64,000 bases of DNA from Alphaproteobacteria bacterium (GTDB taxonomy: Bacteria; Pseudomonadota; Alphaproteobacteria; MPNO01): positions 2,036,939-2,100,938 of the forward strand of contig CBDFLJ010000001.1 of NCBI GenBank assembly GCA_965248835.1. The letters run 5' to 3'. Each line of letters begins with the position of its first letter. Within the stretch, counting starts at the first letter, position 1. The translations under genes and the position numbers were made by a program. This document shows, piece after piece, positions 38,243 to 53,598 of the stretch. Under the pieces are notes generated by a model. That model had not been told where the DNA came from. It saw only the letters and a list, made by a program, of their open reading frames with translations, and made no database searches.

Positions 38243-38620
38243 TTGGCGAAACCCGAATGGGGACTGAAGCGCGCCTGCCACGGCTGCGGCACGCGGTTCT
38301 ATGACCTCAGACGCAACCCGATCGTCTGCCCGAGCTGCGGCGCGACCTTCGATCCGCTGGCGATGCTGCGGCCGCGCCGCAGCCGCGCGGCCGCAGCCGT
38401 CCAGGAGGCCAAGCCTCCGGTCGTGGTGGCCGAGAGCGTCGCGGACGTGGTCGAAGCCGATGTCGACGAGGAAGTCGACGACGAGGTGAGCCTGGAAGCG
38501 GTCGCGGCCGATGACGACGAGGACGAGGACGTGATCGAAGACGTCTCCGAACTCGGAGAGGATGGCGACGACGTGTCCGAGGTCATCGAAGGCGGCAGCG
38601 TCAGCGCCAAGGATCCTTAG
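38243..38620 (+). CDS. TIGR02300-family zinc-ribbon protein with an acidic tail
   Basis: KPEWGLKRACHGCGTRFYDLRRNPIVCPSCG followed by a D/E-rich tail. TTG start with an upstream GAGGA RBS. Confidence 0.8.
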   Translation: MAKPEWGLKRACHGCGTRFYDLRRNPIVCPSCGATFDPLAMLRPRRSRAAAAVQEAKPPVVVAESVADVVEADVDEEVDDEVSLEAVAADDDEDEDVIEDVSELGEDGDDVSEVIEGGSVSAKDP

Positions 38621-38671: not shown

Positions 38672-38747
<76 letters not shown>

Positions 38748-38816: not shown

Positions 38817-39490
38817 TTAGACACTACCTGCTCTCGTTTCGAGCTTCACGATCGCCGCCCGGGCGAGCCTTTCCTGGTCGGCCTTGCGGGTGTAGCGGAC
38901 CACCATCGCGACCGTCCGGTGGCCGAGAATTGCCATGATCTTGCGGTCGGTGCATCCCCGGCCTCGGCCAGCCTCGCGGCCGCCGTGTGACGCAGGCCGT
39001 GGAACTGTAGCGCCCCCAATCCTAGCCGCTTCTTTTCCCGGTAGAAGATCGAATGGAACCCCGAGGCCGTGTACGGCCGGCCGTCCTGGCGGTGGACGAT
39101 AAACATGTGCTCGCGGGGGATCTGATCGAGTACGTCGGCAAGGTGCTGGTGGATCGGGATCGCCAGCCGGTCGCCGGTCTTGGCCTGGACGACCCAGATC
39201 AGTCCCTCGTTGATATGACGCCATTGCATCGCGAGCACATCGCCGCGGCGCTGGCCGGTGTGCAGGGCGAGATCAAGCGCCCACACCATGCGAGGATTGG
39301 CACCCTTGCGGAACCGCTCGATCGCGACATCCGGCCAGGGTTCGTAGCTCTTGGTTGCTCGAAGTTTCTTGACCCGCACCGCCGGATTGTCCGCACGCAG
39401 TCCGCGATCGACCGCGAAGCCGAGCAGGATCGACATGATAGAGAGCGTCATATCGGCGGTGCGCGGAGTGTCCGCCAAGTTGTCCCGCAT
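38817..39490 (-). pseudogene. Tyrosine recombinase/phage-type integrase, N-terminally truncated and frameshifted
   Basis: LALHTGQRRGDVL, then HGLRHTAAARLAEAG. The frame breaks near 38956 and continues in a second frame as CTDRKIMAILGHRTVAMVVRYTR (the HxxR...Y catalytic box). It lies 70 nt from the tRNA-Ala 3' end. Confidence 0.85.
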
Positions 39491-39494: not shown

Positions 39495-39602
39495 TACGGT
39501 AACCGTCTTGCCCTCGTAAAACTCCGACACCGGATCCGCGAGCGCCGGAACCGTCCACAACAACGACGCCGACACCAGTCCCAGAACGATATGTCGATTC
39601 AC
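39495..39602 (-). pseudogene. Leader fragment of a periplasmic solute-binding protein gene
   Basis: GGGAGGA RBS, GTG start, and the signal peptide NRHIVLGLVSASLLWTVPALADPVSEFYEGKTVTV. The reading then runs straight into the integrase remnant. Confidence 0.35.
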
Positions 39603-39849
39603 CGCTCCATCCTCCCGTTTTATGTTCAGACCGCCGGTTTTCCCCTCGTCACGCATCTTGCGCGCTCGCATGCGCATGGACAGCAAGCATGTGCGTTGCA
39701 GGGTTTTCCGTATCGGCGGCTTTCCCGGTCGCGGGGGCGTTGGTCCGCTGCGGTGACGCGGACGAGCAACTTTCGCCGGTTTTCGGAACCATAGCTGACG
39801 GCCGGACCGGGACCGCCGCGGACGGGGCGGCACGTTGGTCTTGCCCAAG

Positions 39850-40056
39850 ATCGCCGCCGGTGCAGTGCACCGGACACAGCAACAGGTCGTATTCGGCAAA
39901 GAAATCACGCCATTTCCGCCGCATCCGCTGGCGTTGCTCGTTGAAACCCAGCCAGTCGCGGTGAGACAGCGTCACGCCGCGCAGCATGCGCGCCCATTTG
40001 TCGTCATCGTCGTCGTCGCGCGCCGCACGCCCAGCCTTCCTTGCACTCGAAGACAT
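39850..40056 (-). pseudogene. Amidase-family gene fragment
   Basis: The translation ...LSHRDWLGFNEQRQRMRRKWRDFFAEYDLLLCPV resembles the C-proximal part of amidase-signature enzymes. There is no complete ORF. Confidence 0.35.
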
Positions 40057-40179
40057 CCGCTGATAATTATACGAAACTGCCTTGTAGGGAAGGATGTGCC
40101 GACGCGCGCCAGGATCGGCTACGATCTCTATACGTAAGCCCGTTGCGGTCTAGCACAACAGCGCGAGGAGGCATTTGGA

Positions 40180-41316
40180 ATGCAAAGAGTCAGAGTGGCC
40201 ATCGCCGGTATTGGCAACTGCGCGAGTTCTCTTATCCAGGGTCTGGAATACTACAAGAGACAGAGCGCGGAAGCGTTTGTCGGTCTCATGCATGCCCGGA
40301 TCGGCGATTGGGGTCCGAGCGACATCGAGATTGTGGCCGCTTTTGATATTGATCGGCGCAAGGTGGGCAAGCGGGTGGAGGACGCGATTTTCGCCAAACC
40401 GAACTGCGCCAAGATTTTTCAGCGCATTCTACCAGTTTCCAACATCGTGGTGCGGATGGGGCCGGTTCTCGACGGTGTAGCGTCTCACATGGCCGATTAT
40501 CCCGATGACGAGGCATTCCGCCCCTCTGACGAGGACCCGGTCGATGTCGTCCAAACCCTCAAGGATGCCAAGACTGAAGTTCTGGTCTGCTATATGCCGG
40601 TAGGCTCTGAAGCTGCGGTTCGGGGTTATGCCCGGGCATGCTTGGAGGCCGGGGTCGCCATGATCAACTGCGTTCCGGTATTCATCGCTTCCGATCCCGA
40701 GTGGGCTGAGAAATTCCGTCGTGCGGCCCTGCCTATCGTCGGCGACGACATCAAAAGCCAGGTCGGCGCCACTATCGTGCACAGATCCCTGACCCGACTA
40801 TTCGGGGATAGGGGGGTGTCGCTTGATCGCACCTATCAGTTGAACACGGGTGGCAACACGGATTTCCTCAATATGAAGGCGTTAGACCGCCTGGAGTCCA
40901 AAAAGGTTTCCAAGACGGAGTCCGTGCAGTCGCAATTGGACGATCGGCTGGTTTCTCGGGACATTCATATTGGACCGTCCGACTACGTGCCGTGGCAGGG
41001 CGACAACAAGGTTGCCTTCATCCGGATGGAGGGCCGCGGTTTCGGGGACGTGCCGTTGGAACTCGAACTCAGGTTGTCGGTCCAGGATTCCCCCAACAGC
41101 GCCGGCGTGGTCATCGATGCCATCCGTTGCGCCAAACTGGGGTTGGAGCGCGGCATCGGCGGACCATTAGAGGCGCCTTCCGCCTACTACATGAAAAGCC
41201 CTCCGAAACAGATGCGTGATTCGGTGGCCTATGATTTAGCTGAGGCATTTATTCAAGGCTGTGATGCCGACGGTACTTCCGATACGGAGGCTGTTCGAAC
41301 AACCGCCGGTGAATAG
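40180..41316 (+). CDS. ino1: myo-Inositol-1-phosphate synthase (bacterial/archaeal short type)
   Basis: 378 aa. N-terminal Rossmann motif VRVAIAGIGNCASSLIQGLEYY, then LNTGGNTDF and SKKVSKT motifs typical of MIPS. GAGGAGG RBS. GC is visibly lower than the core. Confidence 0.9.
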   Translation: MQRVRVAIAGIGNCASSLIQGLEYYKRQSAEAFVGLMHARIGDWGPSDIEIVAAFDIDRRKVGKRVEDAIFAKPNCAKIFQRILPVSNIVVRMGPVLDGVASHMADYPDDEAFRPSDEDPVDVVQTLKDAKTEVLVCYMPVGSEAAVRGYARACLEAGVAMINCVPVFIASDPEWAEKFRRAALPIVGDDIKSQVGATIVHRSLTRLFGDRGVSLDRTYQLNTGGNTDFLNMKALDRLESKKVSKTESVQSQLDDRLVSRDIHIGPSDYVPWQGDNKVAFIRMEGRGFGDVPLELELRLSVQDSPNSAGVVIDAIRCAKLGLERGIGGPLEAPSAYYMKSPPKQMRDSVAYDLAEAFIQGCDADGTSDTEAVRTTAGE

Positions 41317-42184
41317 CTCCGACAATCAGACTGCCGATAATGATCCTGGCAGTGTGAACGCGTCCCGGACCGCAGCCTTGCCCTGGGTGGAGCGGTTACT
41401 CATGCTCCACCACCAAGTGCGGAACGCGGTAGCGACTGCCGACCGCGCTGGAACCGGATCCAGAAACGCGAAGGGCGACGAAATCAAACGCTTCGACCTG
41501 ATTGCCAATGACGCGGCTTTGACTGTCCTCCGGGAACTTCAGTTGCCGATCGTCGTCGATTCCGAGGAGAGCGAACCTCTGCAAATCGGTTTCGGCACGC
41601 CGCGACACCGTCTCATCCTCGATCCAGTGGATGGTTCCGACAACTGGGCGCGGGGGTTGCCGCTGTCAGCCTTGTCCTGCGCCGTGCTGCCGGCTGACGC
41701 TCCCCTCCATCCCGATTGGGTCGAAGCGGCTCTGGTTGGGCCGCTCGAGCCGGGCACGACCCTGATCGCGCTCAAGGGCTCTGGTGCTTGGCGCGGGAAG
41801 GAATCCCTCCATATATCCGACGTCCGCAACGTCGCCGAGGCCACGATCTCGGTCGAACTCAATCATCATTCTCCGTCGCCGGGCATTGCCCGTCTGACGG
41901 CCGCTGCCAGAAGCGTGCGGTGTTACGGTTGCGCGTCACGCGCCATCTCCCTGGTCGCCGAGGGCGTGACCGACGCCCATGTGGACGCGCGTGGCCGTTT
42001 GACCGCAGAAAGCTACCTCGCCGCCGCACGGTTGGTAATCGAGGCGGGGGGCTGGGTTGTCGGCCTTGATGGCGCGCCCCTGGCGGCGCCGGAAAGTTTG
42101 ACCGACCGCGTCAGCCTGATCGCGGCGGCGAGCCGGGACCTGTGCGATGAGATCGTGGATGTTTTGGGCGATGAACAACCCTGA
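41309..42184 (+). CDS. Inositol-monophosphatase-family phosphatase
   Basis: DPVDGSDNW metal-binding motif and EAGGWVVGLDG near the C-terminus. The start is uncertain: the GTG at 41309 overlaps the ino1 stop, and the ATG at 41402 is an alternative. Confidence 0.85.
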   Translation: MNSSDNQTADNDPGSVNASRTAALPWVERLLMLHHQVRNAVATADRAGTGSRNAKGDEIKRFDLIANDAALTVLRELQLPIVVDSEESEPLQIGFGTPRHRLILDPVDGSDNWARGLPLSALSCAVLPADAPLHPDWVEAALVGPLEPGTTLIALKGSGAWRGKESLHISDVRNVAEATISVELNHHSPSPGIARLTAAARSVRCYGCASRAISLVAEGVTDAHVDARGRLTAESYLAAARLVIEAGGWVVGLDGAPLAAPESLTDRVSLIAAASRDLCDEIVDVLGDEQP

Positions 42185-43541
42185 CTTGACCACGGCGGCA
42201 CCGGAGATGGTGCTGATCCTTGCCGCCGGATTGGGGTCGCGGCTTCGACCGCATACCAATAGACCAAAACCGCTGACCAGAGTGCTCGGATTGACCCTCG
42301 CGGAACGGACCGTGTGGACATTGCTGGACGCCGGCATCAGACGTTTCCTTGTCACCCTCGGTCATGAATCCGAAGCGGTCAGGACCCATTTTTCCGATAT
42401 CGCCCAGCGTCGCGGCGTCACGATTGACTTTATCGAAGCCGAAGGCTGGGGGCGCGGCAATGGTGCCAGCGCCCTGGCAGCCAAGGGTCGCACCGGCGAG
42501 GCGCCCTTCTTCCTAGTTATGGTCGATCATCTTTTCGATCCCCGTATCGCGCGGGCACTGGCCGGTGACCCTCCCGCACCAGGAGAAATGTGCCTCGCCG
42601 TGGACCGCGACAAGGATGGCATCTTCGATCTCGGCGATGTCACTCGGGTCAAGATCGACGACGGACGCATTCAAGAGATCGAGAAGACGCTCGATGATTG
42701 GGATGCCGGCGACACCGGAGTTATGCTTTGTACGTCCGGCCTGTTCGAAGGTCTTGAGCGCGCGGCAGCGCGGAATAAGCATGGACTCTCCGACGGGCTC
42801 AGGGAAATGGCGCGTGAAGGCCGGGCGAGCACCGTCGATGTGACGGGAATGCCGTGGCTCGACGTTGATACACCCAAAGCCTTGCGTGAGGCGGAGAGAA
42901 GGCTCATGCGCGACCAAGCCTGGAAAATCCAGGACGGACCGGTGGCGCGCCATTTCAACCGACGGGTTTCCCGCTGGCTCAGCCGCTATCTGGTTGGCAC
43001 AGCCGTGACGCCCAACCAAATTTCCCTAGCCTCCTGGCTCCTGTCGTGTATCGCGGCGGGATTGATGGCATTGGGCGGTTATCCGGCGCTGGCCGCTGGT
43101 GGCGTGCTGGCACAACTGGCCTCGGTCGTCGACGGGTGCGATGGCGAGATCGCTCGACTGAAGCATTCGCAGAGCGAGTTTGGCGGCTGGTTCGACGCGG
43201 TCCTCGACCGGTATGCTGACGCCATCCTGTTATTCGGCCTGATGTGGCACGAATTCGCATCGACCGGCACTCACTTGTCTCTCGTGCTGGGATTCGCGGC
43301 GATCGTGGGGTCGTTTTTGAACAGCTATACGGCCGATAAGTATGACGGGTTGATGGCGCAGAAACTGCAAGGCATCTCATGCTTTCGGCTGGGCCGGGAC
43401 GTGCGGGTGTTCGTCATTTTTGTCGGCGCCATCTTCAACCTTCCTCTCGTCACCCTAGGTGTTGTCGCAGTAGTGATGAACATGGAGGTGATTCGGCGAA
43501 TCGTCGTTTGTGCCACCGCGGACACCAACGTAGATAAATGA
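42171..43541 (+). CDS. Fused nucleotidyltransferase / CDP-alcohol phosphotransferase, predicted to be a CTP:inositol-1-phosphate cytidylyltransferase / di-myo-inositol-phosphate-phosphate synthase-like enzyme (IPCT/DIPPS architecture)
   Basis: The N-terminal LILAAGLGSRLRP...KPL is a sugar/alcohol-phosphate nucleotidyltransferase signature. The C-terminal roughly 190 aa have about 6 predicted TM helices and a perfect CDP-alcohol phosphotransferase motif, DGCDGEIARLKHSQSEFGGWFDAVLDRYAD (DGxxARx8Gx3Dx3D). Overlaps the IMPase gene by 14 nt. Confidence 0.8.
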   Translation: MNNPDLTTAAPEMVLILAAGLGSRLRPHTNRPKPLTRVLGLTLAERTVWTLLDAGIRRFLVTLGHESEAVRTHFSDIAQRRGVTIDFIEAEGWGRGNGASALAAKGRTGEAPFFLVMVDHLFDPRIARALAGDPPAPGEMCLAVDRDKDGIFDLGDVTRVKIDDGRIQEIEKTLDDWDAGDTGVMLCTSGLFEGLERAAARNKHGLSDGLREMAREGRASTVDVTGMPWLDVDTPKALREAERRLMRDQAWKIQDGPVARHFNRRVSRWLSRYLVGTAVTPNQISLASWLLSCIAAGLMALGGYPALAAGGVLAQLASVVDGCDGEIARLKHSQSEFGGWFDAVLDRYADAILLFGLMWHEFASTGTHLSLVLGFAAIVGSFLNSYTADKYDGLMAQKLQGISCFRLGRDVRVFVIFVGAIFNLPLVTLGVVAVVMNMEVIRRIVVCATADTNVDK

Positions 43542-43646
43542 CATTGTCAGACTAACAGGACAGGGCTTGTAGAACCTACAATCGAGCGCCTTCAGGCTGC
43601 TAGCAGTCTGTCGGACTTTGGTATGGATTTCTCATAGAATCGCACC

Positions 43647-44758
43647 ATGAGCGACTTCGTGGACTGTGATCGGGAGCAGGCGTTTTTGCTTCCTCCCGAT
43701 CTGCGGGACTGGATCCCGGAGGATGATTTGGCGCACTTCGTGATCGAGGCGGTGGAGCGCGTCGATTTGGGTGCCTTCAAGGTGAACCATCGTGGCACGG
43801 GCTCGGCGCAGTATCACCCCCGGATGATGCTGGCGCTGCTGATCTACTGCTACGCCAACGGGATCTTCTCGAGCCGTCGGATCGAGCGGGCGACGCACCG
43901 CGATATCGGGGTTCGCTTCGTTGCGGCGAACCTGCACCCGGATCACGACACGATCGCGCGCTTCCGGCGGGAGAACTTTGATGCGGTTTCGGAGAGCTTC
44001 CTGCAGGTTCTGCTGCTTGCCAAGGAGTTGAAGCTGTTGCGGGTGGGTCTGGTCAGCGTTGACGGCTCCAAGTTCAAGGCCAACGCGAGCAAGCACCGTT
44101 CGGTGAGCCATGAGCGGGCGGGCGCGTTGATCACCCAGTTGGAAGGCAAGATCGCGGCGCTGCTGGGCCGGGCGGAGGCGGCGGACGAGCGGAGCAATTT
44201 GACCGACCCGGACAGCCGGCTGATGCGCAAGAGCAAGCAGCATGAGTACCGCCAAGCCTACAACGCGCAGGCGGTGGTGGATGTTGGCGGCAGTCAGTTG
44301 GTCGTGAGCGCGCGGATCAGCCAATGCGCCAGCGACCGCAACGAACTGGTGGCGGATATCGCGGCGATCCCGGCGGCGCTGGGCCGGCCGGAGACGGTGC
44401 TCGCGGACAACGGCTATGCCAACGGGGCGGAGGTGGCGGCGCTCAAGGAGAGCGGCATCGAGGCCTTGGTGTCGACCGCGGCGGAAGACCGCCGCCGAAC
44501 CCACGACTTCCGCCCTGTGAAGGCTCTGCCGGCGGCAAAGGAGCCCAAGGCCGAGTGGTTGAAGGCGATGGCGAGCAAGCTCACGAGCGAAGAGGGTCGT
44601 GCCCTCTACAAGCTGCGCCGGCAGACCGTCGAGCCGGTCTTTGGTGTCATCAGACCGTCGAGGCGGTGCTCGGCTTCACCGGGTTCTCGCTGCGCGGCCT
44701 CGACAAGGTCGCCAGCGAGTGGACCCTGGTAGCTCTCGCTTACAACTGCAAGCGCTAA
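43647..44758 (+). pseudogene. IS1182-family transposase, frameshifted
   Basis: The N-terminus DREQAFLLPPDLRDWIPEDDLAHFV...YHPRMMLALLIYCYANGIFSSRRIE is typical of IS1182. The frame breaks near 44650, and the C-terminus (VLGFTGFSLRGLDKVASEWTLVALAYNCKR) continues in another frame. Confidence 0.8.
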
Positions 44759-44781
44759 GAGCGGTTCCGGGAAGTAGAGAT

Positions 44782-45623
44782 TCACGAGCAAGGGCTTGGC
44801 CGGGTCAAGCGTCGCAGCATGATGCGGATCATGGCGAGGTGGATGAAGGCGACGACAGAACGGACGTGGCGTTCGAAGTCGCGTGCCAGCCGGCGGCAGC
44901 GGACGATCCAGGCGAAGGTGCGCTCGACGATCCAGCGCTTCGGCAGCACCTCGAAGCGCGGCACGTCGTTGCGCTTGACGATCTCCAGCCGCCAGGCGCC
45001 GGTCTTGGCCACCACGGCAGCCATCTTCGGTCCCTGGTAGCCGCCGTCGGCGTAGATCACCTCGATGAATGGAAACAGCCGGCGTGTCCGGCGCAGCAGC
45101 GAGGCCGCGCCATCGCGGTCCTGCACGTTGGCGGGATGCACGACGAGGCCCAGCATCAGGCCGAGCGTATCGACCAGGATGTGCCGCTTGCGGCCGGTGA
45201 GCTTCTTGCCCGCGTCGAAGCCCTGCGGATCGATCGACGCCCCCCTTTTTGCGCCGCTTTGGCGCTCTGGCTGTCGATGATGGCCGCGCTCGGACTGGCT
45301 TCGTGGCCCGCGCGCTCGCGCACCGCCACGTAGAGCTCATGATGGATGCGAGCCAGGGTGCCGTCCCATTCCCACAGCTCGAAGTCGTCGTACACCGTGC
45401 TCTTCGGCGGCAGATCCTTGGGCAGCGCGGTCCACTGGCAGCCGCTCGACAGCACGTAGAAGATGCCGTTCAGGACTTCGCGGACATCGACCGTCCGCTT
45501 ACGCCCACCGTGCTTCGCCGGTGGGATCAGCGGCGCGATCAGCGCCCATTCGGCGTCGCTCAGATCACTCGGATAGCGAAGCCGGCCACGGTCGGCGGCC
45601 ACGCGGTGTCCAGGCTTCCACAT
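44782..45623 (-). CDS. IS5-family transposase OrfAB (requires a -1 frameshift)
   Basis: OrfA reads RYPSDLSDAEWALIAPLIPPAKHGGRKR...AAIIDSQSAKAAQKGG. OrfB continues as IDPQGFDAGKKLTGRKRHILVDTLG...YADGGYQG...RWIVERTFAW, which carries the DDE motifs. Confidence 0.8.
45241..45250 (-). promoter_or_regulatory. Candidate programmed -1 ribosomal frameshift site (A AAA AGG GGG)
   Basis: The reverse strand reads GCGCAAAAAGGGGGG exactly where OrfA and OrfB overlap. The A-AAA-AG heptamer type is the known slippery motif of this IS group. Confidence 0.6.
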
Positions 45624-45709
45624 CGGGCACCCCCAAGCAGTTGGACAGGTGCCAGACAATGAATCACAACCGATTCCGCCGACTCAAGAACTTTCCGGAA
45701 CCGCTCTTA

Positions 45710-46609
45710 GAGACCGTTTGAGAAAGGGTGTTCCGATCGGTGGGGTTTGGTGATTCACCCTGTGCATGTGGACACAGCAGACGCGAGGCCGCATGGCCGC
45801 GATCGAGCGGAAGACGAAGCGCTATCCGACCGATCTCAGCGATGAGGAGTGGGCGCGGATCGCGCCGCTGCTGCCGAAGCCGGCGCAGCGGGGCCGCAAG
45901 CCGAGCGTGGACCTGCGCGAGGTGCTGAATGCGATCCGCTACATGACGCGCACGGGCGGCGGCTGGCGCATGCTGCCGAAGGACTTCCGCCCTGGCAGAC
46001 GGTGTCCTGGTGGTTCCGGCGCTTCGTGCGCCTGATGCTGTTTCGCACCATCCACGACATCGCCTTGATGATGGACCGCGAATGCGTCGGCCGCGAGGCC
46101 AGCCCGAGCGCCGGCGTGGTCGACAGCCAGACGGTCAAGGCCCCCGCGCCGGGGGCGCAGCGGGGCTACGACGCGGCCAAGAAGACGGTCGGCCGCAAGC
46201 GCCATGTCGTGGTCGACACCGACGGCCGGCTGCTGATGGCCAACCTGACGCCGGCCGATATCTCCGACAGCGCCGGCGCGCAGATGATCCTGGAGGGCAT
46301 CGGCAAGCGCTGGCCGTAGCTCAAGCACCTGTTCGCCAACGGCGCCTACGACCGCACCCAACTGATGGACAAGGCGGCCTTCCTCGACTTCGTCATCGAG
46401 GTGGTGCGCCGCATCGACGACGAGCCGGGCTTCAAAGTCGTGCCGCGGCGCTGGGTGGTCGAACGGACCTTCGGTTGGCTCACCCGTTGGCGCCGCCTGG
46501 TGCGCGACCACGAACAACGCGTCGACGTCTCCGAGGCCATGATCCACGTCGCATTGGGAAGCCTGCTGCTACGCCGGGTCAGCCATTGAGCGAATTCTCA
46601 AACGGACTC
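45710..46609 (+). mobile_element. Second IS5-family insertion sequence, degenerate
   Basis: Inverted repeats GAGACCGTTTGAGAA (45710-45724) and GAGTCCGTTTGAGAA (reverse complement of 46595-46609). Separated from the neighbouring IS by only the 3 nt TTA. Confidence 0.75.
45766..46589 (+). pseudogene. IS5-family transposase with a frameshift and an in-frame stop
   Basis: [19 protein letters not shown]...LPKDF, then a frame break near 45986 (the expected PPWQTV continues in the next frame). A TAG at 46318-46320 interrupts ...GIGKRWP*LKHLFANGAYD. The C-terminus is RRWVVERTFGWL. Confidence 0.8.
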
Positions 46610-46737
46610 TAACAACCGGGGGATTTGACGAAGATTTCGGTGTGCTGTCCGACTTTCGCTGAGATCGGCGGTGTTGACGTCCGCAATCATCCGCCGTTTC
46701 GTTCTCGGCGGAGGGTTTTGGCGCTATTCGGGCGGAC

Positions 46738-47335
46738 TCATGCCATGGCGGCGCTGCGCTCATGGAAGATCAGACGCTGGAAATTATAAGCCAGGTTGGC
46801 GAGGCCGATCTTGGCCGCCGCCCGCTCGAGCCCGATGGTACGGACGAACAGGCCCATGCGATCCTTCTGCTGGGCGAAGACGTGCTCGACATGCGCACGG
46901 ACCGCTGACTTGCGGGCATTGGCCCGGGCGGTCGCCTTGGGCATGGCCCGGCCCGGCGGCTTCTTGCGGTGGATGTGGGAGACCCGACCCTTGCCGGCCA
47001 GCCACGCCTCGTTGGCCTTCGAGCGATAGGCGCTGTCGGCCCACACGCCGGCGGCCAGATTGTCGCCGGTGACGAGATGACGCAACATCTTGCCGTCATG
47101 GCGGGCGGCATCGGTCACTGCCGAGCTGCGGATGAAGCCGTAGGCCCGGTCGATGACGACATGGGCTGCGCGGGCTTACGCCGCGCCACTGGCGCGACGG
47201 TCCTGCTCGCTGTAGCCGAACACCGGGATCGCGATGTCGGGCATGCGCCGTTGCGCCCCGGCGGGGTTCTTGCGCCGCCCGGTCTTCACCGTCCACCGCG
47301 CATCCGTGTCCTTCTGCGCCGCCTTGGCCGGCTGA
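46738..47335 (-). pseudogene. IS5-family transposase, C-terminal half only
   Basis: PAKAAQKDTDARWTVK...IPVFGY, then an about 45-nt block containing a stop, then VIDRAYGFIRSSAVTDAARHDG...VWADSAYRS...VEHVFAQQK. Homology to the element ends abruptly at 47335. Confidence 0.75.
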
Positions 47336-47608
47336 ATTCCGGCCACGTCATCGGATGCGGCACCAATCACAAGGGGGTCGGGCTGCCGCAGGACCGCGAC
47401 CATGCCGAGATCGAGATCGCGGGCATCGGACGCTTGGCCATCAACCTCACCGATCCCCTCAAGCGCAGTTGGGAACGCGGCGTACAAGGGCCGGGATTCG
47501 ACCCATCCGGACAACGTGAATCCCGAATGTCCTTCCGGCCGATAGCAAGGACCTTATCGACGGGACCGTCCGGGTCCGGATAGGATGCCGGGCAGGTGGA
47601 GGCAGGCG

Positions 47609-48664
47609 ATGGCAGGCAAACAAGCGATTCACCTTGTAGGGAGCATGCCGCTCGATAGTGCGGAGGATGTCTTCCGCACGGTCTGCGGCGCGACCGGCGG
47701 CAATGTGCGGCGGGTTCCCGACGGCGAGACGGGAATGCGCATCAACTGGATCCGGTGCATTCAGGACATGCTGACGGCGCATCCGGATTTCGAGGTCGAC
47801 CCAGAGACCCCGCCCCTGCAGTGGCGGCAATGGGACGGTAAATTTCTGCGCGAGATCCCGCAGTTGAAGTTCAAGGACGGCGTCGATCCCGACAGCGTCG
47901 TGTTCACGACCCCGTACCGGGAGGAAGCGGTTCGGTCGTTCGAAGTCTTCGACCGGTTGCGCGCGGACGGCGTGATCCCCGACGGCATCAAATTTCAGGT
48001 CTGTGTCCCGACTCCCCTCGCGCCGGGCTACAACTACGTGGCGCCGCGGGCACGGGCGGACTTCATCCGCGTTTTCGGCGATCACATCGTCGAGGCGGTC
48101 GCGCAGCTTGCCGATCGACTGCCTAGGGAGCAGCTCGCCTTGCAATGGGATGTCTGCCAGGAGGTCCTGATGTGGGAGGGCTATTACGATCATCGTCCCG
48201 ACGACTTCAAGGAGGAAATCCTCGCCGTCCTCGGCCGCGTCGGCGACGCGGTGCCGGAGCCGGTCGAGCTCGGCTATCACTTGTGCTACGGGAGTCCCAA
48301 GGACGAGCACCTGATCCAGCCCGTGGACGCCGCCAATCTGGTCGAGATCCTCAACGGCTTGTTCCAGACGGTGCGCCGTTCGATCCAGTTCGTCCATATT
48401 CCGGTACCCAGGGACCGCGCCGACGCCGCTTATTTCGAACCGCTCCGCGGGCTGAACATTCCGCACGAGACCGACCTCTATCTCGGTCTCGTGCATTACG
48501 ACGACGTTTCGGGAAACGACCGGCGGCTTGATATGGCGTGCAGATATGCCAAGGTCGACGGCGTCGCGACGGAGTGCGGCTGGGGGCGAGCGGATCCCGA
48601 ACGCGTTCCCGGCTACCTGGAGTCGCTCTGCCGGTCGGCCGACCATCTGGCCGCCAGAGGCTGA
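47609..48664 (+). CDS. Hypothetical protein, possibly a MetE-like (cobalamin-independent methyltransferase fold) Zn enzyme
   Basis: Clean 351-aa ORF from MAGKQAIHLVGSMP. GYHLCYGS (HxC) and, near the C-terminus, ATECGWGR resemble the Zn-ligand motifs of the MetE C-terminal domain. The functional call is tentative. Confidence 0.55.
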   Translation: MAGKQAIHLVGSMPLDSAEDVFRTVCGATGGNVRRVPDGETGMRINWIRCIQDMLTAHPDFEVDPETPPLQWRQWDGKFLREIPQLKFKDGVDPDSVVFTTPYREEAVRSFEVFDRLRADGVIPDGIKFQVCVPTPLAPGYNYVAPRARADFIRVFGDHIVEAVAQLADRLPREQLALQWDVCQEVLMWEGYYDHRPDDFKEEILAVLGRVGDAVPEPVELGYHLCYGSPKDEHLIQPVDAANLVEILNGLFQTVRRSIQFVHIPVPRDRADAAYFEPLRGLNIPHETDLYLGLVHYDDVSGNDRRLDMACRYAKVDGVATECGWGRADPERVPGYLESLCRSADHLAARG

Positions 48665-48743
48665 CCTTCGAAGTGCACGCCCCGGCTTCGTCGCGGAAAT
48701 GACGGAATGAACAGCCGTCGCGTCCTCCGCCAAGGAGAGAGCG

Positions 48744-48960
48744 ATGTTCGTTGCCACCGAAGGCGCCGTCCTGCCCGCCACCATCGCCGGATCGCTGCCC
48801 TAACCGGGATGGTATACGGAGAATCTCGGCCGGCGCTGCTTCCGCGAGCGGTGATCAACGGCCATTTCCGCGCGTAATACACCGATGCCGTGTCGGCGTT
48901 TCTGCGGCCCCGGCCTGGCCGCATCCGCGCCGCCGGATGCGGCACGAAGGGTTGGCGGCG
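48744..48960 (+). pseudogene. Decayed 5' part of a MetE-like (methionine synthase II family) gene
   Basis: AAGGAGAG RBS plus MFVATEGAVLPATIAGSLP, then a stop. The next frames give PGWYTENLGRRCFRE and AVINGHFRA-YTDAVSAFLR, in the order typical for this family. There are several frame breaks and stops. Confidence 0.5.
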
Positions 48961-49150
48961 CGCTTTCGCCCAAGGCCGTTGGCCCGTTGGCCGGGGCTCC
49001 CTGGACTACAGCGGCGGCGGAGTCCGTCACGCGGCGGGTCCTTCGGCCTGCCCCTTGGGTGTGCGAGCGGCGCGGAGCATCTGGGCGCCCGGAGCGCGGC
49101 GCCTTGACCCAAAAGGCCGGCGATTCGCCCGCCGAGCGGGGAGCGGGACG

Positions 49151-49696
49151 CTACCGGGACGGCACGGTGCGAACGTGACCGTCCCGGTTGTCGAACAGCG
49201 CCTGATCGGCATAGCCCATGAAATCGGGCTGCGCCTTGCCGGCCATGACCTGAAGATACACCGGCTCGACGGTATCGTTGGAATAACCGTGGATCACACC
49301 CGCGGGACAGGAGACGCAGTCCCACGGCCCCAGGGTCACCTGCAGATGCCGACCATCCTCTTCTTCGAAAAACACGGTGAGGTGACCCTGAAGGACGAAG
49401 AAAACCTCCTCGACCTCATGCGTATGAGGCGCATTACCCTCGCCCGGCGGGACGTACATGACGCTGAGCGTGAATGCCTTGGCCGGAATCACCTTTTCGT
49501 CGGGCTTGCCGCTGGTATTTCCTATGAACCGATGCTGGGCTCGCCGGTAGCCATCGATCAACGCGTCGGCGAAAGCCTCCCAATCCGGCCTGCGGTCCTT
49601 GAAATGGGCGACGTACCGAGCGGCGATCTGCTCGAGACTCAGATCGGCGACCTCGGGCGGACGCTCGTGGCGCGCTGTCTTCGTCTTCCGGGCCAT
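49151..49696 (-). CDS. Cupin-domain protein
   Basis: GEGNAPHTHEVEEVFFVLQG...CPAGVIHG are the two cupin motifs. Confidence 0.8.
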   Translation of the reverse strand: MARKTKTARHERPPEVADLSLEQIAARYVAHFKDRRPDWEAFADALIDGYRRAQHRFIGNTSGKPDEKVIPAKAFTLSVMYVPPGEGNAPHTHEVEEVFFVLQGHLTVFFEEEDGRHLQVTLGPWDCVSCPAGVIHGYSNDTVEPVYLQVMAGKAQPDFMGYADQALFDNRDGHVRTVPSR

Positions 49697-49712
49697 GGAT
49701 AGCCTATGCCGC

Positions 49713-50687
49713 TCAGGAGCCCGGAATGAACGCGTTGGTGAAATAGGCGCTGATCGGAAGCGCCTTCTTGATCCGCTTGCCCTCGATCAGGGTCATTTGA
49801 GCCTTCTCGATATCGCCCGGCGGGGTCCATCCCAACGGCTTACCCTTGCTGGCATCGTTCCCGAGCAGATCGAACGATGCCTTTAGAATCTCGAGCGAGA
49901 TCGCGGGCTTCAGGTTGGGAGCAACCTTCCGCAGCGATTCGATTGCTGCTGAAGGCTCTTTCTGACCCAACACGAGAGCCGCGCGGACGCTCGCAACCAT
50001 GCGCCGGACGAGATCGGGGTTGTTCTCGATGTTGTCGGTATGCGTGATCAGGGCGAGGCCGGGCACGACCACACCACCCGAAGCGTAGGTGAAATAAGTC
50101 GAAGGAACGCCATTGGCGGTTGCCTTCGGCGCCTGCAGGAAGCCGAACGAGTCGATGGCGTCCACCTTGCCTTGCAACAGCGCTGCGAGCTTGGCGGCCG
50201 GCTCCATGAACACGAGCTTGACCTTGCCCTCGAGGCCGTTCGCCTTTTGCAGGGCCTTGAAATACATCGCGGTCGCGCCGCCGGCCGAGAACCCGATTTG
50301 CGATCCGGCGAGATCCTTCCAGCTCTTCCAGCCGTTTTTCTTGGGGAAGATGATGGCGACCGGATTTGTCCGAAGATAGGACGCAACGATCCTGACCGGC
50401 AGGCCCTTGGAGATGAGCACCATCACCGCACCGCCATCGGCGGTTCCGAAGGTGACCGTCTTGTTGCCGACGGTTTGCGCCGTGATGGCCGATCCGCGAC
50501 CATCGCGAATGTCGATGTCGATTCCGTTCTTGGCGAAGATTCCCTTGTCCTTGGCATGGTACCAGACGGCGTGGTACGCGCTCTTGATCCAATCGGTCCT
50601 GAGCGAGACCTGATCTGCGGCCTGGGCCGGCAGTGCCATGAGGGCCAAAAGCCCGGTTGCGACTGCGCCGATTGTCGTGGATCTCAT
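49713..50687 (-). CDS. NitT/TauT-family ABC transporter substrate-binding protein (NMT1/THI5-like)
   Basis: Signal peptide MRSTTIGAVATGLLALMALPAQA. DWIKSAYHAVWYHAKDKGIFAKNGIDI is typical of the aliphatic sulfonate/nitrate/taurine SBP fold. Confidence 0.85.
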   Translation of the reverse strand: MRSTTIGAVATGLLALMALPAQAADQVSLRTDWIKSAYHAVWYHAKDKGIFAKNGIDIDIRDGRGSAITAQTVGNKTVTFGTADGGAVMVLISKGLPVRIVASYLRTNPVAIIFPKKNGWKSWKDLAGSQIGFSAGGATAMYFKALQKANGLEGKVKLVFMEPAAKLAALLQGKVDAIDSFGFLQAPKATANGVPSTYFTYASGGVVVPGLALITHTDNIENNPDLVRRMVASVRAALVLGQKEPSAAIESLRKVAPNLKPAISLEILKASFDLLGNDASKGKPLGWTPPGDIEKAQMTLIEGKRIKKALPISAYFTNAFIPGS

Positions 50688-50725
50688 ATCCGTTTCCTCC
50701 TCTGTTTCTGGTGCTTTCAATCCGT

Positions 50726-51508
50726 TCAATTCACGTGCGCACGCTGTGAGACGTGCCACGGAATCATGAGCCGCTCGAGGACCTCGATAGCGTAAAAGAA
50801 CACCATCGCGAGCAGCGAAAGAACGAACAGGATTGCGAACAAAAGTGCCGTATCGAGTTCACCTGCCGCGCTCAGCAGCAGATAGCCGAGCCCGTTGTCC
50901 GAGCCGATGAATTCACCGGTGAGGGCACCGACCACGGCAAGCGCGGATGCGACTTTGAGCCCACCAAACATGCTGGGCAACGCGCCCGGCAGCCGAAGGC
51001 GGAGAAAGATCCGCCTCGGCGGCGCACCCATCGAGCGTGCCAGCTGCACAAGCGCAGGGTCGATACTGCGCAAACCGACAATGGTATCGACCACGATCGG
51101 GAAAAAGCAGATCAGGAAGGCCACCGCCACCTTTGGAAACATGCCAAACCCGAACCAGACCACGAACAACGGGGCCAGGGCGATCTTCGGAATGCTCTGG
51201 GTCGCGACCATCGGCGGATACAGTATGCGTTCCAACGTGGATGACGATACGACGATGATTGCCAAGGGCACCCCGACGACCACCGCAAGCAGATATCCAG
51301 CCATCACCGAGAGCATCGTCCAACCCGAATGAGGGATCATCTCCCACCCGTTATCCCGGCCGGAATCGAGCACCTCCGCCGGTCCTGGGAGCAGATAGCT
51401 GGGGGTTTCGAACAACCAGACGACGCCTGCCCAGAGCCCGATGAGGGCCGCGAACGAGATCACCATCCAAAACGCGTCGCGGGTCCAATTTCGTTTCCAG
51501 AACGACAT
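50726..51508 (-). CDS. NitT/TauT-family ABC transporter permease
   Basis: Six-TM BPD-type permease with the EAA-like loop LARSMGAPPRRIFLRLRLPGALP. Confidence 0.88.
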   Translation of the reverse strand: MSFWKRNWTRDAFWMVISFAALIGLWAGVVWLFETPSYLLPGPAEVLDSGRDNGWEMIPHSGWTMLSVMAGYLLAVVVGVPLAIIVVSSSTLERILYPPMVATQSIPKIALAPLFVVWFGFGMFPKVAVAFLICFFPIVVDTIVGLRSIDPALVQLARSMGAPPRRIFLRLRLPGALPSMFGGLKVASALAVVGALTGEFIGSDNGLGYLLLSAAGELDTALLFAILFVLSLLAMVFFYAIEVLERLMIPWHVSQRAHVN

Positions 51509-51525
51509 CGTGCATCCTTATCGGG

Positions 51526-52362
51526 TTAGTGGTGAATAACCCCCATCTCCTGGAACATCAGCCTGATCTCGTGAACGATCTTGATGAACCCGGGGGTGTC
51601 GTGGATGTTGAGATCGCGCGGACGGTCAAGCTCGACGTCCAGGATCGCCCGGATAGCGCCCGGCCGCGGGGTCATCACGATGACACGGTCGGACAGGAAG
51701 ACGGCTTCGCTGATGCTATGGGTAACGAACAGAACGGTTTTTTGCGAGCGCTGCCAGATCGTCTGGAGATCGACCTGCATTTGCTCGCGGGTCAGCGCAT
51801 CGAGCGCGCCGAACGGCTCGTCCATCAGCAGCATGGGCGGGTCCAGGAGCAGCGCACGGCAGAGCGCAACCCGTTGGCGCATGCCCCCGGACAGCTCGAA
51901 GGGCCGCTTGCCTTCGAATCCCTCAAGTCCGACCGAGCCGAGCAGTTCATGGGCCCGCGAGACGTAGGCGCTCTCGTCGAGCCCGCGCATAACGCATGAA
52001 AGCAGAACATTGCCGGCGACGGTTCGCCAATCGAGCAGCAGATCGCTCTGAAAAACGAAGCCGAGATCGGTATAGGGCTCGGTGACAGCGGTCCCGCCGA
52101 TCCGAACCTCGCCGCCGGTCGCCTCGAGCAGCCCGGCGACAACGGATAACAGCGTGCTCTTGCCGCAGCCGCTTGGACCGACGATGGTGACGAACTCGCC
52201 ACGCCGAACATGAAGATCAACGCCCTCGAGCGCGACAATCGGCTCACCGTCCTGGCCGACAAACGTCTTGTTGAGCGATTCGATCTCGATGAATCCGCTC
52301 GCGGCCCGCGCCCGCACTTCCGGTATTGCAACGGTCCGGATTTCCTGCGGGCGCGGCGTCAT
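51526..52362 (-). CDS. NitT/TauT-family ABC transporter ATP-binding protein
   Basis: GPSGCGKSTLL, LSGGMRQRVALCRAL and LLMDEPFGALD. The ATG at 52362 forms an ATGA overlap with the stop of the upstream gene fragment. Confidence 0.9.
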   Translation of the reverse strand: MTPRPQEIRTVAIPEVRARAASGFIEIESLNKTFVGQDGEPIVALEGVDLHVRRGEFVTIVGPSGCGKSTLLSVVAGLLEATGGEVRIGGTAVTEPYTDLGFVFQSDLLLDWRTVAGNVLLSCVMRGLDESAYVSRAHELLGSVGLEGFEGKRPFELSGGMRQRVALCRALLLDPPMLLMDEPFGALDALTREQMQVDLQTIWQRSQKTVLFVTHSISEAVFLSDRVIVMTPRPGAIRAILDVELDRPRDLNIHDTPGFIKIVHEIRLMFQEMGVIHH

Positions 52363-52790
52363 CAACCCGGCCCCGACGCGGGAGCAGCTTCGTCCGAGAA
52401 GACACGCATCACATCTTCCCAACCGATCGGGGTCGAATTAAACGCAGCGCCAAGCGGCTCGAGCGCATCGGCGACCGGGTTGGCGATCACCACCGGCGGT
52501 GCAACGGCGCCGCATTCGGCGAGCCCCTGGACCCCGAGCGGATTCAGTGGCGAGGGCGTCTCTTCATGGAGCACCCTGATCGGCGGAACCTCGGAGGCTG
52601 ACGGGACGCGGTCGTCCATGAAGCTCCCGGCGGGTAGCTGCGCGTTCTTGTCATGGACGATGTCCTGCAGCAGACCACCGTCCATCCCTTGGTCGAGCCC
52701 GCCCTTCAACTGGCCATCCCAGCCAGATCGCGGGGCGAGACAGATCTGCCGAAGGCCACGTTCAAATCCGGCACACCCCTGACACCGACA
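52362..52790 (-). pseudogene. 3' fragment of a molybdopterin-dependent hydroxylase large subunit (xanthine dehydrogenase/CoxL family)
   Basis: The translation ends ...SPLNPLGVQGLAECGAVAPPVVIANPVADAL...TPIGWEDV, the conserved C-terminus of this family. The upstream part is replaced at about 52797 by the 254-bp repeat. Confidence 0.6.
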
Positions 52791-52796
52791 TCGCCG

Positions 52797-53050
52797 TCGC
52801 CGTCGCGGAACTCGAGATCGGTCTGCGCACTCTCCAGCAGGTGTGCGTCAACGGTCAAGACCTTTTGCTTGAGACGATCGCTCGCCCGGGCGGCGGCCGC
52901 CCGGTAGCGGGCGCGATGGCAGGCGCCGAGGGGTCGGCTCGAACCGAACCGGCTGGTGCTCGTCGACGAGACCTGGACACCTCCAAAAAATCCCTCACCG
53001 CGGAATATAGAATGTTCGTAGATATTTTATTTCAATATCTTACGGGCCAC
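52797..53050. repeat. 254-bp direct repeat, copy 1 (serine-recombinase 5' end plus upstream AT-rich palindrome)
   Basis: Aligns without indels to 55382-55635, with about ten mismatches by eye. Contains AGATATT-N7-AATATCT at its distal end. Confidence 0.85.
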
Positions 53051-53129
53051 CTGACGCGAACGCGTCGAGGTTTTTTCAGAGGCGCCCAGGCGTCTTTTAT
53101 GTTCTATCCGCGCGGGGAATAGGTAGGTG

Positions 53130-53285
53130 ACCAGGGTGCCGGGGTGATCGACAGCCAGACGGTGAAAGCCCCGGCCGCTGGGGCGGAACGCGGCTATGAC
53201 GGCGCCAAGAAGACCATCGGCGGCAAGCCTCACGTGGCGGTGGATAGCGACTTCCGCCTGCTGATGGTCAACCTGACGACGGCGG
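53130..53285 (+). pseudogene. Internal fragment of an IS5-family transposase
   Basis: [46 protein letters not shown] parallels [45 protein letters not shown] of the element at 45.7-46.6 kb. Confidence 0.6.
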
Positions 53286-53587
53286 TTGTCGAGCGCCGGG
53301 GTGTCGACGCCGATGACGGCCCGACTCTTACGGCGCTGCGGCGGTTGCGCGACGGTTATATGACGCGCACGCCGGCCTCCCGCGTGCTGGTCGCGGAGTA
53401 TTGCGAAATCGCTCCGGCCATTGTCGCGGCGATCCCCGAGGATCATCCCGATTGGGGCTGGATCGCCGAGCGGATCGATGCCGGCGTGGCCGCGATCGAG
53501 GTCGAGGACGACCTAGGCGCCTTTGGCGCCTATGTCGAGATGGTGCGGCGGCTCTCGGAAAGCTGGTCCGCACTCAATGCCCAGTAA
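53286..53587 (+). CDS. Small hypothetical protein, probably 5'-truncated by the IS fragment
   Basis: The reading frame is continuous with the IS fragment. The DDGPTLTALRRLRDGYM...VLVAEYCEIAPAIVAAI region has a normal protein-like composition. No family was assigned. Confidence 0.4.
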
Positions 53588-53598
53588 GGAGACCGACG

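Follow-up and report, generated by a model that had tools for sequence, protein, structure and literature searches.

Described systems of inositol phosphodiester synthesis

Di-myo-inositol phosphate (DIP) is a solute of heat-loving organisms. In Archaeoglobus fulgidus (AF0263; PDB 4mnd, with the IPCT domain in 2xme) and in the Thermococcales, for which alone the IPCT/DIPPS model NF041135 was built, a cytidylyltransferase (IPCT) is followed in one polypeptide by a six-helix CDP-alcohol phosphotransferase, the DIPP synthase (DIPPS), which makes the enzyme bifunctional (EC 2.7.7.74 / 2.7.8.34). In the Thermotoga DIP cluster (L045) the activities of myo-inositol-1-phosphate synthase (MIPS), IPCT, DIPPS and an IMPase-family phosphatase are encoded together, MIPS first, with IPCT and DIPPS as separate genes and two ABC-transporter genes before the IMPase. 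A second A. fulgidus protein, AF2299 (4o6m, 4o6n, 4q7c), is of unproven function and carries a cytidylyltransferase-like N-domain and a CDP-alcohol phosphotransferase domain; crystals of it were obtained with CDP-glycerol, and its description is that of a protein that does not process lipids (PMC4634129).

Beyond the thermophiles, DIP genes have already been reported from deep-sea and hadal Thaumarchaeota, where, by description, a fused IPCT/DIPPS gene and an extra IMPase lie with archaeal regulators on small islands that have been read as horizontally acquired and as adaptations to pressure or osmotic conditions (PMC7265257, PMC8397731, PMC10773090). Finally, a cluster described from Bacteroides vulgatus and Prevotella has MIPS beside separate genes for an NTP transferase and a CDP-alcohol phosphatidyltransferase, with a HAD hydrolase instead of an IMPase; a CDP-inositol route was proposed from this neighbourhood, and the lipid product is likewise proposed, not confirmed (PMC9246714).

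The locus compared here lies in a window of 64,000 nucleotides, the whole stretch of DNA analysed, to which all coordinates refer. From the sequence, we lean towards reading positions 40084-43603 as a copy of a spreading DIP-type cassette that has lost its promoter and is likely silent and decaying. What is new is a probably decaying copy, stripped of its promoter, of an inositol-phosphate cassette that is already common in marine metagenome-derived bacterial genomes. A preliminary description had seen an unusual DIP module in this DNA, and its interpretation is partly supported: the architecture and the pathway logic stand, whereas the product is less firmly tied to DIP and the restriction of DIP to hot environments is at odds with the thaumarchaeal reports.

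Gene content and junctions

All three open reading frames are present at 40180-43541, on one strand and each overlapping its neighbour, and the three-gene inositol-phosphate module noticed earlier is thereby confirmed. The first gene (40180-41316, forward strand) encodes a myo-inositol-1-phosphate (inositol-3-phosphate) synthase of 378 aa. As had been proposed, it is of the short bacterial/actinobacterial type, matching Pfam PF01658 (2.7e-34), TIGR03450 over its full length (1.5e-141; 472 bits, below the cut-off of 638) and Mycobacterium tuberculosis Ino1 (PDB 1gr0, 2e-128), and it shares 77-92% identity with MIPS from related loci. In this it differs from the Thermotoga cluster, whose type of MIPS matches it at 1.7e-27 only.

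The second gene (41309-42184, forward strand) encodes an IMPase/FBPase-family phosphatase of 291 aa (PF00459, 6e-12; NF009321, 4.7e-36, under the cut-off). Its closest solved relatives are the archaeal proteins MJ0109, PH1897 and AF2372, and the motifs SEE, LDPVDGSDNW (the DPVDGSDNW of the preliminary description) and ESYLAA..EAGG are kept across the 27 other copies compared. Its start deserved care. The GTG at 41309, which overlaps the MIPS stop codon (TAG, 41314-41316) and had been mentioned as a possibility, occurs in every related locus compared, and indels within 41317-41401 are all multiples of three (16-19 related loci for the junctions). Gene callers place the start at ATG 41402, which was rejected for its lack of conservation across related loci; the IMPase gene is therefore taken as 41309-42184. 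The third gene begins at ATG 42171, the start used in most related loci and in agreement with the common 453-aa form, and so shares 14 nt (42171-42184) with the IMPase gene, whose stop codon TGA lies at 42182-42184. Starts that overlap the preceding stops in this way indicate translational coupling of the three genes, which would be transcribed as a single message.

The fusion protein and its probable product

The third gene (42171-43541, forward strand) encodes a fusion of 456 aa, with an IPCT-type cytidylyltransferase at about residues 12-250 and a six-helix CDP-alcohol phosphotransferase at about 255-450, the domain order of the A. fulgidus and Thermococcales enzymes. Pfam finds NTP_transf_3/NTP_transferase (PF12804, PF00483) and then CDP-OH_P_transf (PF01066), the protein contains the motifs LILAAGLGSRLRP and DGCDGEIAR-x8-G-x3-D-x3-D, and its AlphaFold model (pLDDT 89) places six long helices after a juxtamembrane helix, so the nucleotidyltransferase-phosphotransferase fusion recognised earlier is borne out. 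The best sequence match is A. fulgidus IPCT-DIPPS (PDB 4mnd, 5e-49), which is also the top Foldseek match of the model (TM-score 0.78/0.87). Fifty columns are invariant between the fusion family and Archaeoglobus-type proteins (Archaeoglobus, Geoglobus and, where named, Thermococcales), among them all catalytic motifs: GxGxR..K, GNG, DH, DTG, WxDVDT, NRxxS, the full CDP-alcohol signature (D324, G325, A328, R329, G338, D342 and D346) and RDxR. Unlike those enzymes, however, the window fusion shares no more than 29-35% identity with proven IPCT/DIPPS, aligns over its full length with NF041135 at 2.3e-79 and 267 bits where the equivalog cut-off is 580, and is joined in a cassette with MIPS and IMPase; its IVYWREL content is 0.40, against 0.44-0.49 in the Archaeoglobus/Thermococcales-type proteins.

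By homology and gene context, MIPS would convert glucose-6-phosphate to L-myo-inositol-1-phosphate, the IPCT-type domain would combine this with CTP to give CDP-inositol, the six-helix membrane domain would move the inositol-phosphoryl moiety onto another molecule of inositol-1-phosphate to give DIPP, and the IMPase-family protein, a candidate DIPP phosphatase, would strip the remaining phosphate to leave DIP. The proposal that four activities make up the route agrees with the Thermotoga cluster, which encodes the same four. On homology, DIP is the best reading for the cassette; since AF2299 is a closer relative of the membrane domain than the proven DIPPS lineages are, DIP as the product is something we infer, and the acceptor, hence the product, could be another.

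The N-terminal domain shows the IPCT kinship claimed for it. Among solved structures it matches the A. fulgidus IPCT domain best (2xme, 82 bits, 4.5e-22; 4mnd, 81 bits), and it resembles T. maritima IPCT (4jd0) at 44.6 bits (1.5e-10), which is level with MurU (45). The IPCT-type motifs GxGxR..K, GNG, DH and DTG are all present, with the window subgroup having Gly for a conserved Glu two residues before GNG. The membrane domain points elsewhere within the family. AF2299 is its closest solved relative (147 bits, 40% identity), compared with 77 bits for AF0263 and 32% identity to either of the DIPPS lineages treated as characterised (that of A. fulgidus and the Thermococcales, and that of Thermotoga). 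In a neighbour-joining tree with PIP synthases as outgroup it falls within the DIPPS/AF2299 group, and it pairs with AF2299, apart from both DIPPS lineages, in 37 of 60 bootstraps (62%), a moderate support.

This placement, together with the CDP-glycerol bound in the AF2299 crystals, would suit a different soluble inositol phosphodiester, in which CDP-inositol is used on, for example, glycerol-3-phosphate and the IMPase yields a glycero-phospho-inositol-type solute. We consider this quite unlikely, since AF0263 and Thermotoga DIPPS share just 35% identity with each other, which puts 32% inside the family's own range, and since the cassette supplies inositol-1-phosphate alone and encodes no glycerol-phosphate cytidylyltransferase. 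Moreover, the N-domain of AF2299 has no detectable sequence similarity to that of the window (score -0.9), the best match of which is an IPCT; the folds of AF2299 and the fusion model do superpose (TM-score 0.57/0.77).

Lower still is the probability we give to an inositol lipid, formed by transfer of CDP-inositol to diacylglycerol or ceramide in the manner proposed for the alternative cluster of Bacteroides vulgatus and Prevotella, which we hold to be very improbable. What the two loci have in common is a MIPS gene whose neighbours encode a nucleotidyltransferase and a CDP-alcohol phosphotransferase, CDP-inositol being the proposed intermediate, and the transferase of the window is membrane-embedded in the AlphaFold model. 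That cluster, however, keeps its enzymes as separate genes and has the HAD hydrolase where the window has an IMPase, and a lipid acceptor would make the phosphatase step needless, yet the IMPase is conserved and appears translationally coupled. Furthermore, the six-helix architecture has been linked to soluble acceptors, enzymes with lipid acceptors typically having three or four additional helices, and the RxxR motif of PIP synthase binds the inositol-phosphate acceptor (PMC4634129); the conserved RDxR of the fusion aligns with this motif. PIP synthases themselves are only about 20% identical to the membrane domain (NF045883, 6.5e-17, below the cut-off; 6wm5 and 6h53, about 1e-6) and serve as its outgroup; the membrane domain does not cluster with these CDP-diacylglycerol-using enzymes, an outcome that the preliminary description had named as one that would tell against it. 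An assignment of the fusion as a CDP-diacylglycerol-using PIP/AIP synthase (mycobacterial, Renibacterium or archaeal) was rejected on this low identity and on the fused cytidylyltransferase domain.

A cassette common to marine metagenome-derived genomes

Contrary to the view of an unusual cluster, the family is common and partly annotated, which the preliminary description had itself listed among the outcomes that would refute it: more than 120 protein clusters exist at 79% identity or more, and some members carry pipeline labels such as CDP-L-myo-inositol myo-inositolphosphotransferase or bifunctional IPC transferase/DIPP synthase. The cassette is a sharply bounded unit of about 3.4-3.7 kb that occurs in 34 species-level MAGs and is frequent among metagenome-derived genomes of marine bacteria. 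In the 34 loci, homology at the nucleotide level (78-99%) is limited to 40084-43603 while the flanks are unrelated, and the GC content of the cassette stays within 0.56-0.66 while that of the flanks spans 0.39-0.69. The suggested synteny survey places MIPS, IMPase and fusion together in 21 of the 34 related loci (tblastn) and also in a 55%-identical relative; relatives at 43-55% identity likewise lie directly downstream of a MIPS gene. Family-wide omega values of 0.14-0.30 correspond to purifying selection. Taken together, these patterns suggest a self-contained, horizontally spreading three-gene unit. Whereas the archaeal fusions come from A. fulgidus and the Thermococcales, this family resides in MAGs, at least one of them (MnTg02, L004) from a cold abyssal site at 5520 m depth (PMC6839870). 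The thaumarchaeal islands are comparable in being small, in their fused gene and extra IMPase and in their non-thermophilic marine carriers, and differ in their archaeal hosts and in having archaeal regulators instead of the promoter and leader of the cassette.

Most copies begin with a sigma70-like promoter (TTG, 20 nt, TAnnnT) and a conserved 5′ leader of about 300 nt, which has no match in Rfam.

Island setting and state of the window copy

Horizontal acquisition of a low-GC module, as previously proposed, is upheld by composition and flanks. The GC content of the module is 0.58-0.65 against 0.67-0.72 in housekeeping genes, and GC3 is 0.68-0.73 against 0.88-0.89 in those of the host. To the left, a tRNA-Ala with anticodon GGC (38672-38747, forward strand; ARAGORN, Rfam tRNA 67 bits) is the probable integration site at the edge of the island. 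It is followed by a truncated tyrosine-recombinase (phage integrase) ORF (38846-39490, reverse strand; PF00589, 2e-16, profile positions 26-144 of 172 only) that is overlapped by a second ORF in a different frame. To the right, the fusion gene is followed by a 3′ tail (43542-43603, forward strand; alignment and blastn end points) common only to a 97-100% subgroup (window, L001 and L036), which diverges past 43603, and then by a pile-up of IS transposases (43647-47118; Pfam) comprising a DUF772/DDE_Tnp_1 element, two DUF4096+DDE_Tnp_1 elements and a DDE fragment. The cassette would have entered the genome on an island beside the tRNA-Ala; the 3′ end of this tRNA has no second copy elsewhere in the 64-kb window, so the ends of the island cannot be placed.

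In the window copy the conserved promoter is missing, as are about 250 nt of the leader. What is left of the leader is its final ~96 nt (40084-40179, forward strand; homology to L002 starts at 40084, and the remnant aligns with full leaders), in which the ribosome-binding site GAGGAGG occupies 40165-40171. Where promoter and leader belong there is unrelated DNA with an amidase-like gene fragment (39649-40056, reverse strand; weak Pfam Amidase match, 5.6e-4, profile positions 330-380), which is absent from all related loci but L035. A scan limited to sigma70-type sites found none in 39500-43800. Left breakpoints vary among sister copies (40084, 40114 and 41297), with a common right end.

The coding sequences have also changed in an unusual manner. 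Compared with the nearest sister copy, L036, the window has 35 nonsynonymous and 9 synonymous changes, which gives an omega of 1.3 from 44 substitutions only; the changes fall on both branches, and omega = 0.15 is rejected (P = 4e-11). At 13 positions the window subgroup deviates from columns conserved to at least 95%, one being E94G beside the GNG motif, the replacement of a Glu that the two solved IPCTs share with the family.

These changes might be taken as adaptation to a new host by a fully functional stress-solute pathway, a reading we regard as unlikely. It would accord with the three open reading frames, the intact ribosome-binding site and overlapping junctions, and the retention of the arrangement in L035, which has only 6 differences from the window. 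On the other hand, omega, at 1.3 on both branches, is in keeping with neutral evolution, the E94G replacement touches a residue conserved in the family, no sigma70-like site replaces the lost promoter and leader, and members of the same subgroup are eroded, L001 lacking MIPS and L036 having a different left breakpoint. The loss of promoter and leader, the IS neighbours and the mainly amino-acid-changing substitutions make it most likely that the window copy is silent or weakly expressed and heading to decay with its reading frames still open, probably a silent, eroding relic. As a DIP route in the present host, which the preliminary description had envisaged, the module is accordingly in doubt, as its native promoter and leader are gone and it evolves as if unconstrained: it may make nothing there, and with all three frames intact it may still work from read-through or an unrecognised promoter. 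The sister assembly L035 has an extra IS630-type (DDE_3) insertion directly 3′ of the fusion gene.

The three genes and their junctions

The first gene of the cassette (40180-41316, 378 aa) encodes a short-type myo-inositol-1-phosphate synthase (MIPS; Pfam PF01658), which aligns over its full length with TIGR03450 (1.5e-141, 472 bits, under the model's 638-bit cut-off) and is matched by M. tuberculosis Ino1 at 2e-128. The second belongs to the IMPase/FBPase family, its top solved relatives being the archaeal dual-specificity enzymes MJ0109, PH1897 and AF2372; the metal-binding motifs are kept family-wide, with a Glu in the second motif where MJ0109 aligns an Asp. In the third, a nucleotidyltransferase domain is joined to a CDP-alcohol phosphotransferase domain, and the resulting fusion protein is aligned over its whole length by both the Thermococcales model for inositol-phosphate cytidylyltransferase (IPCT)/DIPP synthase (DIPPS) (2.3e-79, equivalog cut-off not reached) and A. 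fulgidus IPCT-DIPPS (PDB 4mnd, 5e-49). These profile and structure-sequence matches bear out the three ORFs of the preliminary description.

Both gene junctions were examined in an alignment of 16-19 related loci. A GTG at 41309, overlapping the MIPS stop codon, is found in every aligned locus, the indels up to 41401 are all in frame and the ATG at 41402, which is the gene callers' choice, is often absent; the IMPase gene is therefore placed at 41309-42184. The ATG at 42171, 14 nt ahead of the IMPase stop, is the start of the fusion gene in most loci. Both overlaps proposed earlier are thus backed by the alignment, and junctions of this kind point to translational coupling.

Evidence on the product

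The module had been read as a pathway to di-myo-inositol phosphate (DIP), an interpretation that is partly supported. The domain order of the fusion protein is that of the characterised fusion enzymes, and the best match of its N-terminal domain is the A. fulgidus IPCT domain (2xme, 82 bits; 4mnd, 81 bits), with the T. maritima IPCT (4jd0, 44.6 bits) level with MurU (45 bits). Fifty invariant columns are common to the family and the clade of A. fulgidus IPCT/DIPPS relatives, among them RDxR, which lines up with RxxR, the motif of PIP synthase for the acceptor phosphate (PMC4634129). An AlphaFold model (pLDDT 89), whose input alignment included that clade, is closest in fold to A. fulgidus IPCT-DIPPS and displays a six-helix architecture of the kind associated with soluble acceptors (PMC4634129). 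The gene content of the Thermotoga DIP cluster equals that of the cassette; the Thermotoga enzyme had been expected to be a fusion, but IPCT and DIPPS are separate genes there. More distant relatives of the fusion protein also adjoin MIPS genes.

Against this evidence for DIP stand a score below the equivalog cut-off, the modest identity (29-35%) to the bifunctional A. fulgidus enzyme AF0263 and its Thermococcales relatives, and an affinity of the membrane domain to AF2299, an A. fulgidus CDP-alcohol phosphotransferase of unproven function. The AF2299 membrane domain is 40% identical to that of the window protein, whereas AF0263 and Thermotoga DIPPS are each 32% identical, and in a tree of 51 sequences the window domain joins AF2299 in 37/60 bootstraps. 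AF2299 has been described as using a CDP-glycerol donor and no lipid substrate (PMC4634129), and as probably involved in PI-phosphate synthesis (PMC8633023). With no more than 35% identity between AF0263 and Thermotoga DIPPS, the window protein falls inside the spread of the family; PIP synthases are about 20% identical to its membrane domain. Growth temperature was also sought from the IVYWREL content of single proteins, a measure that proved too noisy and is usable only as an ortholog-to-ortholog contrast.

Distribution and transfer of the cassette

Among 5.8 billion proteins searched, more than 120 clusters share 79-100% identity with the fusion protein, and some already bear the name CDP-L-myo-inositol myo-inositolphosphotransferase or bifunctional IPC transferase/DIPP synthase. 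Scanning one genome per species located 34 loci, all in MAGs, which are labelled Alphaproteobacteria, Hyphomicrobium, Rhodospirillales, Binatia, Nitrosomonadaceae, Arenicellales, Spirochaetia, Planctomycetota and others, several of the loci being on Mb-scale contigs. MIPS, IMPase and fusion genes occur with equal spacing in most loci that are neither cut by a contig end nor rearranged. Nucleotide homology (78-99%) is limited to the segment corresponding to 40084-43603, the flanking DNA being unrelated, and protein identity within the family is 66-98%. Cassette GC is 0.56-0.66 and flank GC 0.39-0.69, a measure independent of the MAG labels: its GC is above that of the host where the host is low in GC, and below it where the host, like the window genome, is high in GC. 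In a library clustered at 50% identity, the closest representative shares 55% identity and no other exceeds 48%, and the family is therefore a tight, recently spread clade. One of the hosts (locus L004) is MnTg02, a Rhizobiales MAG obtained at a depth of 5520 m from a ferromanganese crust (PMC6839870), and further sample names, read as names alone, suggest deep or cold marine sources.

Many copies are rearranged or eroded, with insertions between the genes (L005, L016), internal deletions (L030, L031), truncations at both ends (L025), a shortened IMPase (L044) or, as a second copy in one genome, a 3′ fragment of the cassette (L032); this fits frequent gain and loss.

DIP counts as a hallmark of organisms living above about 55 °C. 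Outside thermophiles, DIP genes have been reported in deep-sea and hadal Thaumarchaeota (PMC7265257, PMC8397731, PMC10773090), which were called the first nonthermophilic organisms with DIP ability (PMC8397731), and have also been credited to Atribacteria (bioRxiv 536078); no further non-thermophiles credited with them were found in the literature searched. Osmolyte gene inventories of SAR116 and SAR11 include DIP synthesis, presented without gene analysis (PMC12262181, PMC6018831). The cluster is common, and pipelines already annotate it in many relatives. A description of the bacterial cassette or its leader was not found in the literature searched, which is weak evidence given that many journals lie outside its coverage.

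Promoter and 5′ leader of full cassettes

In about 16 loci homology starts 340-380 nt upstream of MIPS, and in most copies the gene is preceded by a conserved non-coding region of about that length, for example at L021 3654-4033, L028 3319-3709 and L024 3695-4033, with further instances in L002-L004, L006-L008, L011, L013, L014, L016, L017, L020, L027 and L031. Complete cassettes span, for instance, L021 3654-7390 and L028 3319-7050. At its left edge a TTG, followed 20 nt later by TAnnnT, is nearly invariant (for instance TTGCCG-17-TAGGTT and TTGTCA-17-TATGAT), and this edge reads as a sigma70-type promoter in which precisely the most conserved positions are fixed.

The promoter is followed by a non-coding leader of about 300 nt, for which RNAalifold predicts seven helices (34 pairs), including a post-promoter hairpin and an 8-bp long-range helix that joins alignment columns 120-127 with 313-320. 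Some of the changes in the leader are compensatory. Within these helices 88.7% of cells pair, compared with 38-47% when the 3′ partners are slid by 1-3 columns, and the covariation score of 0.318 (0.271 in shuffles) is reached by 1/500 shuffles. Since the sequences are closely related, the predicted RNA structure is suggestive and not proof. A small ORF in the leader was considered and rejected, as the alignment has no conserved ATG and contains indels that are not multiples of three. Searched against Rfam at E <= 1, the leader is unmatched in four loci, and the window yields only the tRNA. The leader is a candidate for an undescribed regulatory element.

The remaining interest lies at the level of the family, in transfer across very different GC, non-thermophilic hosts and a conserved promoter and leader. 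A far-reaching account, which we advance tentatively and consider rather unlikely as a whole, is that a self-contained cassette of ~3.7 kb (sigma70 promoter, undescribed structured ~300-nt leader and translationally coupled MIPS-IMPase-IPCT/DIPPS genes) has recently spread among bacterial lineages that differ widely in GC, in marine habitats that are cold, deep or host-associated, and makes DIP in those settings. Non-thermophilic bacteria of the sea would then use DIP as a general solute against pressure or osmotic stress, DIP would not be a marker of hot environments, and its synthesis would be under the control of a new RNA or operator element that turns it on. Were the family to make DIP, the pathway would be one widely traded among marine bacteria, at ~80-99% nucleotide identity and with flank GC of 0.39-0.69. 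In that case, the compact 3.7-kb unit, expressible in E. coli, would also offer a direct test for DIP.

The window copy

In the window, the leader is reduced to its final ~96 nt (40084-40179), with the ribosome-binding site included; an amidase-like fragment stands upstream of this remnant, and no sigma70-like site was found in 39500-43800. The nearest copies form a subgroup at 97-100% identity: L035 represents this locus in a sister assembly, where an IS630-type element is additionally inserted, L036 carries the cassette in another IS-rich context and L001 is without MIPS. Left breakpoints within the subgroup vary (40084, 40114, 41297) and the right end at 43603 is common, a pattern that fits erosion. 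One-ended IS mobilisation was weighed as another source of common right and varying left ends, but the IS found past the common right end differs from one context to the next, which makes erosion the simpler reading.

In family-wide comparisons, at dS 0.2-1.0, omega ranges over 0.14-0.30. The window copy differs from L036 by 9 synonymous and 35 nonsynonymous substitutions (omega 1.3), so that neutrality is not rejected (P = 0.6) and an omega of 0.15 is (P = 4e-11); the changes divide 20 vs 17 between the two branches. At columns at least 95% conserved, the subgroup deviates seven times in the fusion protein, five times in the IMPase and once in MIPS. One deviation replaces with Gly the Glu two residues ahead of the GNG motif, a residue found in A. 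fulgidus IPCT, T. maritima IPCT and the family consensus; relative to the consensus, the subgroup substitutions include E94G, P265R and Y404C. Because of the largely lost leader, the lack of a sigma70-like site, the breakpoint pattern, omega and the departures at conserved columns, the window copy is probably unexpressed or under relaxed constraint, and it adds a new member, probably a decaying one, to a pathway type already known. As a promoterless, eroding copy it documents the gain and loss of such cassettes and is of smaller value than the family.

Composition and flanks

The module is foreign in composition, its GC3 being 0.68-0.73, compared with 0.88-0.89 in aroA, rpsA and other host genes. 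Its flanks hold a tRNA-Ala, a truncated integrase and a series of IS transposase remnants; composition and annotation agree with the proposal of a lower-GC module between a decayed integrase at tRNA-Ala and an IS pile-up. A repeat of the tRNA-Ala 3′ end that would bound the island was sought, and only chance matches of at most 15 nt were obtained. Directly upstream of the tRNA-Ala, a FYDLN_acid zinc-ribbon protein with an acidic tail (38243-38620; PF09538, 2.3e-27) is encoded by an ordinary conserved gene, the last host gene ahead of the island. To the right of the IS pile-up (47500-64000) GC is 0.60-0.67, against ~0.69 in the left part of the window, and this DNA encodes a cupin, an NMT1-type ABC transporter, a resolvase fragment (54946-55443), a TRAP transporter and a TauD dioxygenase; the window end may still lie within the island. 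A 392-aa ORF with a P-loop (GLRGTGKT; 1587-2765) coincides with a GC dip to 0.56-0.57 within high-GC surroundings and may be another foreign insertion.

Related inositol loci

A shared accessory gene was considered, given the Meth_synt_2-like gene close to the cassette of L042 and of L044, and was rejected, the window's 359-aa neighbour (47585-48664) not being homologous to it. A pair present in two assemblies (L042 12854-14921, L043 7397-9464) consists of a second MIPS gene and, directly after it, a SAM-dependent methyltransferase; it is located on a 5.3-Mb contig, some 3.5 kb downstream of the cassette, and could represent a route to a methylated inositol. In L038 (4872-7900) and L040 (4899-7849), MIPS is followed by a fusion protein 43-48% identical to that of the window and then by a DUF4202/HD-domain protein, with no adjacent IMPase; the DUF4202/HD protein might replace the phosphatase step.
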